Of a DNA stretch of 64,000 bases, positions 17,869-44,220 are shown in pieces. How positions within the stretch are numbered: position 1 is the first letter of the stretch; the number at the start of each line of letters is the position of its first letter. A program made the translations under genes and the position numbers. Source of the stretch: Escherichia coli (lineage in GTDB: Bacteria; Pseudomonadota; Gammaproteobacteria; Enterobacterales; Enterobacteriaceae); NCBI RefSeq assembly GCF_003018255.1, contig NZ_CP027440.1; one strand, 5' to 3'. The notes beneath the pieces are model-generated. The model ran no database searches. It saw only the letters and a list, made by a program, of their open reading frames with translations, and was not told the origin of the DNA.

Positions 17869-19164
17869 CTACAGCGGGTAGTGTGCGACGTACACGGCTT
17901 GCTGGTTATTAATTCTTTTCTCTTGCGCGAATCCTTCTTTAACAATTGTCCGTAAATCAGCTCGAGCCGTATTATCAGAGACGCCCAAGCTCGCGCTAAT
18001 TTCAGCAACTGTGTACTCTTTCCCCGGATTGGCGAGCATCACATTCAGGAGCGTTACCTGGCGCGGATTCAGGCGTTTAAGCACACCAGAGCTAAACAGC
18101 ACACTATCGAGTTTTGCGCTTCGTTGTGTAATTTCATCGATATGCTGCTGCCAGTTTTGCAGAGCACGTTTAATGACACCCGCCTGATATTCAAGGAAAT
18201 AAGTCAGATCCATACCATCTGATTCAGTGTACTGGTAGCTGGCGGCATATTTGACCGGTGCAGCATGAAGCAAACGGCTGATGGAAATATATTTAAAGAC
18301 ATCGTAGCCCGATTTCAGCATATACCAGTAAAACAGCGCCCGACTGGTGCGCCCGTTGCCATCGCGAAACGGATGTTCATGGGCCAGCATAAAATGCAGA
18401 ATGCAGGCACGGACCAACGGATGAATATACCCTTCATGGCTGTTTAACCACTGGCAAACTTTTTCCAGCCGTTCCGGTAACAATGCCGCAGCGGGCGGTT
18501 GATGCACTATATTGCCATCATAGTCGGCGATCACAACATCATCTGTTTCACGAAATTCTCCCGGACGATATTTCGCGTCATTGATTCCACCCATACCAAT
18601 GGCATGTAACTGGCGAATAAGCGCAGGTGTCAGCGGTTCTGCGAGTAAGTGCGGAATTTCCGCCATCAGCCGGGCATTTCCCGCAATCATATGCTCGTCT
18701 TCAGTGCGTGGCGACCGCCCTGTTTCCAGCATTTTTCTCGCCACCAGCGTTGTAGTATTCGCACCTTCCAGTTGGGAACTGGTGATCGGCTCTTCCAGGC
18801 GTAACTGACTTAACTCGGCGCCCGCCCCGCGTAACCGTTCAGTCTGATCTTTCAGCGCCAGTGCAGTGGCATGTTTATCAACAAGCTCGCACGCTTCTGC
18901 AATCACCGGCGTAATGTTGAATCCGGCCTGTTCACCCGCTTCATTGCAATAATTAATTCGTTGGATCGCCGCGTTGCGCGCCAGACGGGTAAGCGTCCAC
19001 GCCACATCGACGTTTTCTCCTTTTTTGATGCGGTACTGCAGCTCATCAAAAGGCAGATAACGTCCTTTTTCATCGGTAACCCGGTTAAAGCGCAGGTGGG
19101 CCAGGAGTTCCTCACCCGATAAGTGTGATAAAGGAATAAGTCCGGGAGGTGATTTGATAGCCAT
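17869..19164 (-). CDS. Fic-domain protein (class II, with C-terminal winged-helix-like region)
   Basis: 431 aa; canonical Fic motif [14 protein letters not shown]; candidate inhibitory motif SSQLEG (S/TxxxEG/N) N-terminal to it; about 110 aa of C-terminal extension. Confidence 0.8.
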
Positions 19165-34716: not shown

Positions 34717-34739
34717 TACAATCTCACCCTCTCCACATG

Positions 34740-35040
<301 letters not shown>

Positions 35041-37682: not shown

Positions 37683-38240
37683 GTTCCTTTCTCGTCGCTG
37701 TAATCACAGCCTCTCACCATTTACTCGCTCCTGCTGGCACATGCAGGAGCCTGTTTCAGAGATCGAATATTTATAACGTTCTTAACATTATATATTCAAT
37801 CTCCTCTATTCTTTTTAGCGCACATGCCAGGCTAAATTCTGAAAATCAGGTACAAGTTAAAGAACGATGTATCAATATTAACAATGAATTGCCGCATATC
37901 AATGCTTGAAACATAATTAATTATTTAAATTTTTCTATCAGCATCGCAAACTTCGCAATAAAACATCACTCAACTGAATATTTACCTTTCCCTGCCCTGG
38001 GCCTTTATCCGGTGAAACATTTGACATTGATTGACACCGATCATTAAAATCCGCGCGATTAATATTATTGGCTACAAACCGAAATTGTTTGACACTTAAT
38101 AACATATTCGCACAACCGATTAATACAAAAATTCTCTAACAAATTTATTTGTCGGATATGCTCCACTCTAATCATTCATAAAAAAAATGATTGTGCCGTA
38201 ATTATCAACTGTATCGGGATTATGAAAAGGAATTCATCCT

Positions 38241-38967: not shown

Positions 38968-41900
38968 ATGAACAAAATTTTTAAAGTTATCTGGAATCCA
39001 GCGACGGGCAGTTACAGCGTTGCCAGCGAAACGGCGAAGAGCCGTGGTAAAAAAAGCGGGCGCAGTAAGCTGTTAATTTCTGTACTAGTTGCGAGTGGGT
39101 TGTTGTCGTCGTTTGGAGCGTTAGCTAATAACTACGACGGGCAGCCAACTGATTATGGCGATGGCTCAGCAGGTGACGGCTGGGTTGCTATCGGTAAAGG
39201 GGCAAAAGCAAATACCTTTATGAACACTAGTGGCGCGAGTACAGCTTTAGGATATGACGCGATAGCCGAAGGTGAGTACAGTTCTGCCATCGGGTCAAAA
39301 ACCCTTGCAACTGGTGGAGCATCCATGGCGTTCGGGGTTAGTGCAAGAGCAATGGGTGACAGAAGTGTCGCGCTGGGTGCATCGTCAGTAGCAAATGGCG
39401 ATCGTTCGATGGCTTTTGGTCGTTACGCAAAGACGAATGGTTATACATCTCTTGCTATTGGGGACTCCTCCCTTGCCGATGGTGAAAAAACTATTGCGTT
39501 AGGAAATACGGCTAAAGCTTACGAAATTATGAGCATCGCCCTCGGTGATCATGCCAATGCGTCAAAAGAATATTCAATGGCGCTGGGTGCAAGTAGTGCC
39601 GCATCTGCGGCTAACGCGATTGCAGTAGGCCGCAACAGTGCTGCAGCTGGCGTAGACAGCCTCGCATTCGGTAGACTATCCGCCGCCAACGCCGCAAACG
39701 CGATTGCTATGGGTGCAGAGAGCAAAGCTGCTGAAAATGCGACGGCAGTTGGTACTAACGCGGAGGCAAATGGACTTAATAGTATCGCGTTGGGCTCCGG
39801 CAGTATTGCAGATGTCGACAACACTATTGCTCTGGGCAATCAAAGTCAGGCAGTAGCGGCTGGCGCAATTGCCATCGGTCAAGGGAATAAAGCTGACGGC
39901 GCAAATGCTATCGCGCTGGGTAATGGTAGTATTACAGGTGGTGTAAATGCTATTGCTCTTGGACAAGGCAGTTATGCCGGTTTAGAAAATGGCACTGCAA
40001 TTGGTGCTCAAGCCAGTGCTCAGGGGAAAAATTCAGTTGCTCTGGGTGCTGGTTCTGTAGCGACTGACGCGGATACTGTTTCTGTGGGTAACACAACAGC
40101 TCAGCGACAAATTGTCAATATGGCAGCAGGTGATATCAGCACTACCAGTACTGATGCCATCAATGGATCACAGCTTTATGCTATCAGTAAGTCAGTAGCG
40201 GACAATCTTGGTGGGGGGGCTACCGTCAATGCGCAAGGCGTCGTTACTTCCCCAAATTACAGGCTGAAAAGTGGTATTTTCGGCACTGTTGGCGACGCCT
40301 TAACGGGCCTGGACAATAATACGTTACAATGGGACTCCCTTAAAAAGGCATATAGTGCGGCACATGGTACAGATACTACCAGTACCATCACCAACGTTAA
40401 AGACGGCGCTATTTCTGATACCAGTAAGGATGCGGTTAACGGTTCTCAGCTGAAAACCACCAACGATAACGTAGCGACCAATACTGCCAATATCACCACC
40501 AACACTAACAGTATCAATACCCTGACGGATTCCGTTGGCGACCTTAAAGACGATGCCCTGCTGTGGAATGGCACCGCGTTCAGCGCCGCGCACGGCACCG
40601 AAGCCACCAGCAAAATCACCAACGTCAAAGACGGTGACCTGACGGCTGGCAGCACCGACGCGGTTAACGGCTCTCAGCTCAAAACCACTAACGATGCCGT
40701 GGCAGCCAACACCACCAATATCGCCACGAACACCACCAACATCACCAACCTGACTGACGCTGTTGACAGTCTCGGTGATGACTCTCTGCTGTGGAATGAT
40801 GCAGCGAAAGCATTCAGTGCCGCTCACGGTACCGATGCCACCAGCAAAATCACTAACGTCAAAGACGGTGACCTGACGGCTGGCAGCACCGACGCGGTTA
40901 ACGGCTCTCAGCTCAAAACCACTAACGATGCCGTGGCAGCCAACACCACCAATATCGCCACGAACACCACCAACATCACCAATCTGACTGACGCTGTTGA
41001 CAGTCTCGGTGATGACTCTCTGCTGTGGAATGATGCAGCGAAAGCATTCAGCGCCGCGCACGGTACTGATGCCACCAGCAAAATCACTAACGTCAAAGAC
41101 GGTGACCTGACGGCTGGCAGCACTGACGCGGTTAACGGCTCTCAGCTCAAAACCACTAACGATGCCGTGGCAGCCAACACCACCAATATCGCCACGAACA
41201 CCACCAACATCACCAACCTGACTGACGCTGTTGACAGTCTCGGTGATGACTCTCTGCTGTGGAATGATGCAGCGAAAGCATTCAGCGCCGCGCACGGTAC
41301 TGATGCCACCAGCAAAATCACTAACGTCAAAGACGGTAACCTGACGGCTGGCAGCACTGACGCGGTTAACGGCTCTCAGCTCAAAACCACTAACGATGCC
41401 GTGGCAGCCAACACCACCAATATCGCCACGAACACCACCAACATCACCAACCTGACTGACGCTGTTGACAGTCTCGGTGACGATTCCCTGCTGTGGAACG
41501 CTACGGCGGGTGCATTCAGTGCCAAACACGGCACCAACGGTACTGACAGCAAAATCACCAACTTACTGGCAGGCACTGTATCCTCTGATAGCACTGACGC
41601 CATTAATGGCTCACAACTTTATGGTTTAGCTGATTCATTTACGTCATACCTTGGCGGTGGTGCTGATATCAGCGATGCGGGTGTATTAACCGGGCCAACC
41701 TACACTATTGGTGGTACTGACTACAATAACGTCGGTGATGCTCTGGCAGCCATTAACACGTCATTTAGCACATCACTCGGTGACGCCCTACTCTGGGATG
41801 CGACCGCCAAGGGCGGTGACGGTGCGTTTAGCGCCGGTCGCGGAAAAGATAACACGGCCAGCATCATTACTAATGTTGCAGACGGTGCAATTTCCTCTAC

Positions 41901-44220
41901 CAGCAGCGACGCTATTAACGGCTCACAGCTCTATGACACCAGTAAGTACATTGCCGATACTCTGGGTGGTGACGCAGAAGTCAATGCTGACGGCACAATC
42001 ACCGCACCGACTTATGCTATCGCTGGCGGCAGTTACAGCAACGTCGGTGACGCGCTGGAAGCAATCGATACCACGCTCGATGACGCTCTGTTGTGGGATG
42101 CCACAGCCAATGATGGTAATGGTGCATTTAGCGCCGCTCACGGAAAAGATAAAACAGCCAGTGTAATCACTAACGTCGCTAACGGTGCAATCTCTGCCAC
42201 CAGCAGCGATGCCATTAACGGTTCACAACTGTATACCACCAACAAGTACATTGCCGATGCCCTGGGTGGTGACGCAGAAGTTAACGCTGATGGTTCTATC
42301 ACTGCGCCGACTTACACCATTGCAAATGCCGAGTACAACAACGTCGGTGACGCCCTGGATGCGCTCGACGATAACGCTCTGCTGTGGGATGCAACGGCCA
42401 ATGACGGCGCAGGTGCCTACAACGCCAGCCATGACGGCAAGGCCAGCATCATCACAAATGTTGCTGATGGTAACATTGGCGAAGGCAGTACCGACGCCAT
42501 CAACGGTTCTCAGCTGTTTAACACCAATATGATGATCCAGCAGAACAGCGAAATCATCAATCAGCTTGCCGGTAACACCAGCGAAACCTACATCGAAGAT
42601 AACGGTGCGGGTATTAACTATGTACGTACCAACGACAACGGCTTAGCGTTCAACGATGCCAGCGCTTCAGGTATTGGCGCTACGGCTGTGGGTTATAACT
42701 CTGTTGCCGAAGGCGATAGCAGCGTAGCCATCGGTCAGGGCAGCTACAGCGACGTTGATACCGGTATTGCCCTGGGTAGCAGCTCCGTTTCCAGCCGTGT
42801 AATAGTTAAAGGTTCTCGTGACACCAGCGTGTCGGAAGAAGGTGTTGTGATTGGTTATGACACCACGGATGGCGAACTACTTGGTGCGCTGTCTATTGGT
42901 GATGACGGTAAATATCGTCAAATCATCAACGTAGCCGATGGTTCCGAAGCCCATGACGCCGTTACGGTTCGCCAGTTGCAAAATGCCATTGGTGCAGTCG
43001 CTACCACGCCGACCAAATACTTCCACGCCAACTCAACGGCTGAAGACTCACTGGCTGTCGGGGAAGACTCGCTGGCGATGGGCGCGAAAACTATCGTCAA
43101 TGGTAATGCGGGTATTGGTATCGGCCTGAATACTCTGGTTCTGGCAGATGCCATCAACGGTATTGCTATCGGTTCTAACGCACGCGCCAACCATGCAAAC
43201 AGTATTGCAATGGGTAATGGTTCTCAGACCACTCGCGGCGCTCAGACTGGCTACACCGCCTACAACATGGATGCACCGCAGAACTCTGTGGGTGAATTCT
43301 CCGTAGGTAGCGAAGACGGTCAACGTCAGATCACCAACGTCGCAGCGGGGTCGGCGGATACCGATGCGGTTAACGTGGGTCAGTTGAAAGTAACGGACGC
43401 GCAGGTTTCCCAGAATACCCAGAGCATTACTAACCTGAATACTCAGGTAACGAATCTGGATACCCGCGTCACCAATATCGAAAACGGTATTGGCGATATC
43501 GTAAGCACCGGTAGCACCAAGTACTTCAAGACCAACACCGATGGCGTAGATGCTAACGCGCAGGGTAAAGACAGTGTTGCGATTGGCTCTGGCTCTATTG
43601 CTGCCGCTGATAACAGCGTTGCGCTGGGTACTGGCTCTGTGGCAAACGAAGAAAATACGATCTCCGTAGGTTCTTCCACTAACCAACGCCGTATCACCAA
43701 CGTTGCCGCTGGTAAAAATGCTACTGACGCGGTTAACGTTGCGCAGTTGAAGTCTTCCGAAGCAGGCGGCGTGCGGTATGACACCAAAGCTGACGGTTCT
43801 GTTGATTACAGCAACATCACTCTCGGCGGTGGTAATGGCGGAACGACTCGCATCAGCAACGTTTCCGCTGGCGTTAACAACAACGACGCGGTGAACTACG
43901 CGCAGTTGAAGCAAAGCGTGCAGGAAACGAAGCAATACACCGATCAGCGCATGGTTGAGATGGATAACAAACTGTCCAAAACCGAAAGCAAGTTGAGCGG
44001 TGGTATCGCTTCTGCAATGGCGATGACCGGTCTGCCGCAGGCTTACACGCCAGGTGCCAGCATGGCCTCTATTGGTGGCGGTACTTACAACGGTGAATCG
44101 GCTGTTGCTTTAGGTGTGTCGATGGTGAGCGCCAATGGTCGTTGGGTCTACAAATTACAAGGTAGTACCAATAGCCAGGGTGAATACTCCGCCGCGCTCG
44201 GTGCCGGTATTCAGTGGTAA
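38968..44220 (+). CDS. upaG: Trimeric autotransporter adhesin (UpaG/EhaG/SadA family)
   Basis: 1750 aa; extended signal peptide region [20 protein letters not shown]…; YadA-like head repeats (…SIALGxGS…); long repetitive stalk; C-terminal YadA-type anchor ending …[13 protein letters not shown]. Symbol assigned by family and position only. Confidence 0.8.
40549..41478 (+). repeat. Tandem array of about four 234-bp (78-aa) repeats inside the adhesin stalk; copies 2-4 near-identical
   Basis: Unit [78 protein letters not shown] recurs with starts near 40777, 41011 and 41245 (period 234 bp); more diverged copies flank it. Confidence 0.85.

Follow-up and report, generated by a model that had tools for sequence, protein, structure and literature searches.

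Tandem DALL-neck stalk modules of a trimeric autotransporter adhesin at the UpaG/EhaG locus differ in number between Escherichia coli lineages

That trimeric autotransporter adhesins (TAAs) have repeated stalk modules which recombine is textbook knowledge. Reviews of the family describe UpaG of uropathogenic E. coli (CFT073 type, 1778 aa), EhaG of enterohaemorrhagic E. coli (1588 aa) and SadA of Salmonella enterica as characterised positional orthologues, and attribute adhesion to extracellular-matrix proteins, aggregation and biofilm formation to UpaG and EhaG. The surface display of SadA requires a second protein, SadB (reviewed previously). In BadA of Bartonella henselae, and likewise in AtaA of Acinetobacter sp. 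Tol 5, the stalk consists of repeated coiled-coil, DALL-neck and FGG modules, and the number of neck/stalk repeats in BadA varies between strains through recombination, with long reads being needed to resolve it. The “highly repetitive nature” of these adhesins has been presented in reviews as a route to rapid adaptation. Our literature search for TAA tandem repeats, copy number and stalk length retrieved nothing specific to E. coli.

Herein we analysed a 64,000-nucleotide stretch of E. coli DNA (hereafter the window), which carries an ORF of 1750 codons with Pfam matches to an ESPR extended signal peptide, many YadA_head repeats, YadA_stalk (15 hits) and a C-terminal YadA_anchor (Table 1). 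Judged from these domain matches, this layout is the defining architecture of a TAA (type Vc secretion), and the product would probably form a homotrimer on the cell surface, given its homology to SadA and AtaA, whose crystal structures are trimeric. Over its 5253 bp the gene is 100% identical to the copy in the complete genome of E. coli JNE112863, the surrounding 23 kb being six SNPs apart, and the identical protein is present in RefSeq (WP_073569135.1, product “YadA-like family protein”).

Comparison with the known E. coli systems gave a single BLASTP alignment to UpaG that runs from end to end (residues 1-1750 vs 1-1778, 79% identity), and an alignment to EhaG in which identity is 78% for the C-terminal 1200 aa and 59% for the N-terminal part. 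The likeness to both extends to the order of the domains (ESPR, YadA-like head, repeated stalk, further heads, anchor) and to the slot on the chromosome, from a sadB-like gene to lldP. The genes here are ordered mtlA-mtlD-mtlR, yibT, yibL, a DUF3251 lipoprotein gene, the adhesin and lldPRD, and the same order (yibL, sadB-like, adhesin, lldP) is found where RefSeq names the adhesin upaG (strain N12, 1778 aa) and ehaG (28RC1, 1588 aa). Given the end-to-end UpaG alignment, the EhaG alignment and the shared slot, the gene is therefore, by sequence and position, an allele of the UpaG/EhaG locus. Strictly speaking it is neither UpaG nor EhaG, since the NCBI naming rule assigns it neither name and RefSeq leaves the product at its family-level name. 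NCBIfam yielded no UpaG or EhaG model, and the only models matched, from adhesins outside the family (Ata, Vomp, EmaA, BimA and YadA), all scored far below their cut-offs. With respect to the repeats described below, UpaG of N12, equal in length to the published UpaG, has an array of this kind made up of 76, 78, 78, 71 and 71 aa units, whereas the window allele has no heptad-deleted units and differs from UpaG at 35-41 of the 234 nucleotides of each unit. EhaG is almost entirely without the 78-aa array, and the window allele is an intermediate one.

The SadB-like gene immediately upstream stops 44 nt ahead of the adhesin gene and matches the solved structure of Salmonella SadB (Table 1); its orthologues are annotated as “DUF3251” or “SadB/YajI family lipoprotein” in other E. 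coli records, and its product gave no match in NCBIfam. The putative sigma-70-like promoter ahead of it may serve a sadB-adhesin operon, and past the adhesin gene lies a terminator-like hairpin. Laboratory expression of the gene is listed in a review table as H-NS-repressed. At some alleles of the locus the lipoprotein or adhesin gene is interrupted by internal stops or frameshifts.

Table 1. Features of the adhesin locus, with positions counted from the first nucleotide of the window.
Feature	Position	Strand	Basis or remark
Putative sigma-70-like promoter, TTGACA-18-TAAAAT (11/12), upstream of the SadB-like gene	38021..38050	+	Consensus match only
SadB/YajI-family inner-membrane lipoprotein gene, DUF3251, 227 aa	38241..38924	+	PDB 4c47 match, E=7e-69
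Trimeric autotransporter adhesin gene, 1750 aa, upaG/ehaG positional orthologue and allele	38968..44220	+	ORF, Pfam domains, gene order
ESPR extended signal peptide, aa 1-48	38968..39111	+	Pfam PF13018, E=4e-15
u0, diverged stalk unit, 76 aa	40321..40548	+	Nucleotide identity to core units 67-68%
Antisense ORF, 401 codons, GTG start, not a gene	40324..41529	-	Codon-aligned shadow of the array
u1, 228 nt, 76 aa	40549..40776	+	94.7% identical to u2; near-identical from ~40576 on
Nested 21-bp sub-repeat, one heptad NTTNIxT, in each unit	40708..40747	+	Tandem Repeats Finder
u2, 234 nt, 78 aa: DALL connector, neck, ~five coiled-coil heptads	40777..41010	+	5 synonymous SNPs vs u3
u3, 234 nt	41011..41244	+	
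u4, 234 nt	41245..41478	+	1 nt apart from u3 (D to N)
Second repeat class, three ~300-nt (~100 aa) units: DALL connector, neck, FGG-type insert	41479..42369	+	Starts 41479, 41779, 42079
YadA-like membrane anchor, aa 1690-1750	44035..44217	+	Pfam PF03895, E=1.3e-19, whole 60-position model covered
Terminator-like hairpin and T-run, 145 nt past the adhesin stop codon	44365..44394	+	Consensus match only

The original prediction, made from the window alone, placed three near-identical 234-bp units in the stalk of this adhesin, with more diverged copies on either side and a second, longer repeat class behind them, and each of these elements was recovered. Tandem Repeats Finder assigned positions 40579-41498 a period of 234 nt with 3.9 copies, 97% matches and zero indels (score 1742), and the units starting at 40777, 41011 and 41245 are identical at 229/234, 228/234 and 233/234 positions in pairwise comparison (97.4-99.6%), where 228 or more matches out of 234 would be expected by chance with P ~1e-127. 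Five of the six differences among these three core units fall at third codon positions, and the remaining one changes D to N. Together with u1, which is shorter owing to a 6-nt deletion near its start, they form an array of 76, 78, 78 and 78 aa that lies in frame within the adhesin ORF. The outer copies (the unit at 40321 and the first 234 nt past the array) share 67-69% of their nucleotides with the core units. The nested 21-bp sub-repeat listed in Table 1 has further copies at 40942-40981, 41176-41215 and 41410-41449, and a weaker one at 40477-40516. The second class (41776-42359 in Tandem Repeats Finder: period 300, 1.9 copies, 78% matches) comprises units at 41479-41778, 41779-42078 and 42079-42369, of which the second and third share 79.9% of their nucleotides; the identity of the first to these two is 64-66%. 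The adhesin arrays are the strongest tandem repeats of the window. Only one further repeat of the window scores above 80, an intergenic one of 135 bp at 34727-35013.

The position of the array within the stalk, assigned above from the Pfam layout, is borne out by structure matches. A single unit aligned to the solved DALL-neck fragments of SadA (2ynz, E=9.6e-14 over 69 residues; 3zmf, 5e-13; 2yo2, 4.6e-12), the first of which is given in a review listing as the reference DALL structure, and to the AtaA fragment 3wpo (E=6e-13). With these matches and with the DxLLW and NGSQL signatures present in its sequence, the unit is a DALL-neck module. Read along the sequence, it comprises an 18-residue DALL part, which leads from helix to strand, and a 22-residue neck, which leads from strand back to helix, and the other 35 residues can be read as five heptads with L, V, I, I, V at the a positions and T, N, N, L, L at d, asparagine occupying two of the d layers. 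This register was set by eye rather than computed, and is compatible with both the 7-codon period of the nested 21-bp repeat and the 7-aa-deleted units of UpaG. In the 100-aa class an FGG-type insert takes the place of most of the coiled coil, and this insert aligns with fragment 3wpa of AtaA as well as 2yny and 2yo2 of SadA. We estimate that one 78-aa unit would add ~6-9 nm to the fibre, on the basis of 35 coiled-coil residues at ~0.15 nm each plus the connectors, and bracketed by the 108 nm quoted in a review for SadA with its 1461 aa. BadA and AtaA share the module types but differ from the window adhesin in that they have far more modules (30 in BadA), belong to different organisms and resemble it at the level of motifs only.

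To place the array among other strains, the 234-nt unit was searched for in 5426 complete E. coli genomes, and it was found in 648 of them, always on the chromosome and with 1-8 matching places in each (median 4). Full 78-aa units were then counted in fetched representative loci. None is present in ST648, where the gene is annotated as a frameshifted pseudogene; STLEFF_47 and 22AR0750 have one (in the latter a 243-nt variant with an extra NTT), CLSC36 and 13P477T two, GPEC657 and W13-16 three, as in the window, elppa4 five, and E300010 seven. The gene lengths seen were 4552, 4785, 4794, 5019, 5253, 5256, 5730 and 6198 nt, and they differ by multiples of 234 nt, give or take small indels. In CLSC36, 13P477T and 22AR0750 the flanks of the array are 99.6-100% identical to those of the window and yet the arrays hold one or two units; unit gain or loss has therefore taken place with the rest of the allele left as it was. 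The alleles with zero, five or seven units are more distant. That such arrays expand and contract, altering the length of the stalk, had been part of the original prediction, along with the proposal to compare repeat number among strains; the occurrence of 0, 1, 2, 3, 5 or 7 units in complete genomes, in frame, upholds it. In this respect the E. coli locus, polymorphic in both sequence and unit number, contrasts with SadA, which is reported to be highly conserved among Salmonella strains.

Variation between lineages is accompanied by stability within them. At least 60 complete genomes contain the three-unit gene with a length of 5252-5255 bp (5253 bp in 56 of the 60) and at least 99.7% identity, and these best 60 matches came from human, poultry, pig and water isolates; the two-unit architecture was found in 21 genomes at 99% identity or more. 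Copy number is thus stable inside lineages and different between lineages. Since dozens of genomes that share one allele agree in copy number, the array cannot be called hypervariable, and the differences may be neutral ones of long standing. A phase-variable contingency locus, in which short repeats shift the reading frame and switch a gene on and off, was considered and rejected, since 234 and 21 nt are both multiples of three and every intact variant examined stays in frame.

The arrays also carry signs of exchange between their units. Within five of the seven arrays (window, CLSC36, 13P477T, W13-16 and UpaG of N12) units differ from one another at 0-6 of 234 positions, while in E300010 and elppa4 the differences rise to 20-22 because each of these arrays contains a second unit type. 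Against the much larger distance between window and UpaG units given above, units are therefore alike within an array and unlike between alleles, a pattern that at the sequence level is concerted evolution. Six consecutive units of E300010 are identical, which would indicate a recent amplification. The third unit of CLSC36 is a chimera in which 5' variants of u2 from the window are joined to 3' variants of u3, the product expected of an unequal crossover. Between the window and the common three-unit allele there are 12 SNPs, five of which are clustered within 166 bp of u2 in what looks like a conversion-like tract. At the smaller scale, UpaG of N12 has two 213-nt units in which the nested heptad repeat is short by exactly 21 nt.

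From these observations we consider it highly probable that the repeats are in-frame tandem stalk modules of the passenger of a UpaG/EhaG-family adhesin, and that they vary by recombination or slippage. Each unit would act as one rigid segment that moves the N-terminal YadA-like head farther from the outer membrane. Unequal homologous recombination or replication slippage would gain or lose whole units, given the stretches of more than 200 bp over which the copies are nearly identical, and gene conversion would keep the copies of an array alike, while the nested 21-bp repeat would allow the same change at the scale of one heptad. Frame and coiled-coil register would be preserved at every event, so that fibre length and the count of repeated surface motifs would change without the gene being switched on or off. 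The present data establish which gene and module type this is, the copy-number polymorphism, the concerted evolution and the chimeric units. We infer the route of rearrangement (RecA-dependent crossover or slippage) and its rate from the patterns between strains, and the selective value of length and the gain in nm per unit are to be read in the same way.

Whether the number of units matters to the cell is a separate question from how it changes. The differences in copy number might be by-products of recombination that are neutral to selection and functionally without effect, a reading that we regard as a serious possibility, if somewhat on the unlikely side. It would fit with the fixation of copy number inside lineages and with the presence of pseudogenes among the alleles of the locus, and a paper on Brucellaceae argues for non-adaptive evolution of such adhesins. 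On the other hand, all variants remain in frame and keep the heptad register, with changes in multiples of 234 or 21 nt (the exception being the 9-nt insertion of 22AR0750). Moreover, purifying selection acts on the sense frame of the units: of the 49 nucleotide columns that vary among 28 units from nine strains, 35 are sense third-codon positions, and 12 of the 78 residues vary.

The same conservation at the protein level (12 of 78 residues variable vs 49 variable nucleotides) would also suit a role of the units mainly as ligand-binding or self-association modules instead of spacers, in which case copy number would set how avidly fibronectin, laminin or other cells are bound, as has been proposed for the DALL-neck motifs of BadA. 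Fibronectin binding by BadA maps to the repeated DALL-neck and coiled-coil motifs of its stalk and rises with their number, and UpaG is reviewed as binding fibronectin and laminin and mediating aggregation. The BadA motif, however, differs in sequence from the E. coli unit, and ligand-binding and spacer roles are mutually compatible. We judge it unlikely that binding or self-association is the main role. By analogy with the masking of SadA function by LPS and fimbriae (described in a review) and with the cumulative fibronectin binding of BadA, reach and avidity would be two plausible and compatible consequences of unit number. A more specific proposal is that the number of units (0-7) and the single-heptad indels together provide length tuning at two scales, which would match the reach of the adhesin to the thickness of the O-antigen or capsule of each lineage. 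We offer this as a speculation with a low chance of being correct; if true, copy number should covary with surface polysaccharide type and should not drift neutrally.

The original prediction had regarded the true copy number as uncertain. The near-identical stretch of ~0.9 kb exceeds short-read length, and arrays of this kind in BadA were resolved only with long reads, which would suit a collapsed, expanded or over-polished repeat. We nevertheless reject an assembly artefact as very improbable. In addition to the identical gene in JNE112863, 59 further complete genomes from many laboratories and hosts share the gene length of 5252-5255 bp at 99.7% identity or more, and the other copy-number classes are each found in several independent genomes. 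The units further bear distinct SNPs, with the same unit types recurring in other strains, and a collapsed assembly would not show such unit-specific SNPs. On this point the original caution was not sustained.

Long antisense ORFs in this interval had been predicted to be by-products of the repeats, which holds with a refinement of the cause. The adhesin gene has 35 sense TTA, CTA or TCA codons, which read as stops in the codon-aligned antisense frame, and none of them lies between 40324 and 41563 or within the four units, which is the proximate reason that the opposite strand stays open, and the repeat multiplies a single stop-free unit fourfold. A second antisense ORF at 43048-43935 has the same codon cause and yet lies outside the repeats. 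That the ORF at 40324-41529 on the minus strand could be a real overlapping gene, as its length and GTG start might suggest, is next to inconceivable, given that it is exactly codon-aligned with the sense frame and bounded by sense TTA codons at 40324 and 41563, that its product would be a glycine-, valine- and arginine-rich sequence of low complexity, that 35 of 78 antisense residues vary across the 28 units from nine strains vs 12 of 78 in the sense frame, and that RefSeq annotates nothing on that strand there; we rejected it on the codon alignment and the residue variability. The antisense ORF should stay unannotated.

The phenomenon is already known in kind and is ordinary for this class of protein, and it has little importance beyond good annotation. 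The gene can now be placed as an allele of the UpaG/EhaG locus, its three full units are a genuine architecture shared by a lineage, and the locus is length-polymorphic across the 5,426 complete E. coli genomes surveyed. This is of relevance to vaccine work, UpaG being a candidate antigen, and to strain typing from short reads, which may misjudge the gene.

Across the gene for the UpaG/EhaG-type trimeric autotransporter adhesin, the window differs from the common three-unit allele of GPEC657 by 12 SNPs, five of which fall in a 166-bp stretch (40818-40983) of the 234-nt stalk unit u2. Since these five clustered SNPs agree with the unit type found in strain CLSC36, the interval suggests a tract of gene conversion or recombination. 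The adhesin locus also varies in its integrity, as the loci of CLSC36, W13-16 and ST648 show: the gene of the SadB-like lipoprotein carries an internal stop or frameshift in some strains, and ST648 has a frameshift in the adhesin gene itself. The adhesin/SadB-like locus is decaying in some lineages.

Other features of the window are listed in the table below. Two overlapping ORFs (24803-25141 and 24916-28950) make up a split RHS core gene, which carries a frameshift annotation in the near-identical genome JNE112863. Because its unit holds the REP-like palindrome GCCTGATGCGCTACGCTTATCAGGCCTAC, the tandem repeat between mtlA and mtlD appears to be a repetitive extragenic palindrome (REP) cluster.

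Additional features of the window and their coordinates
Feature	Window position (nt)	Strand	Setting	Details or basis
Fic family protein gene	about 17869-19164	minus	between aldB and yiaY	annotation of the near-identical JNE112863 record
RHS core gene region	24803-30308			ORF pair, then small ORF and immunity gene
Small ORF	29008-29418		after split RHS core gene	
Imm57-family immunity gene	29787-30308		after split RHS core gene	
Tandem repeat, 135-bp unit	34727-35013		gap between mtlA and mtlD	2.1 copies, 96% identical

Stalk units of other lengths were found in two further strains. The sole full unit of 22AR0750 (adhesin residues 604-684) measures 243 nt, its coiled-coil segment containing an additional NTT (9 nt), and these three inserted residues disrupt the heptad register; this unit may be a real variant or a sequencing error. 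Units 4 and 5 of the UpaG allele of N12 are 213 nt (71 aa) each and lack exactly one heptad at a 21-bp nested repeat, which is found in all units of the window. The loss of precisely one heptad from both N12 units implies that stalk length can change in single-heptad steps.
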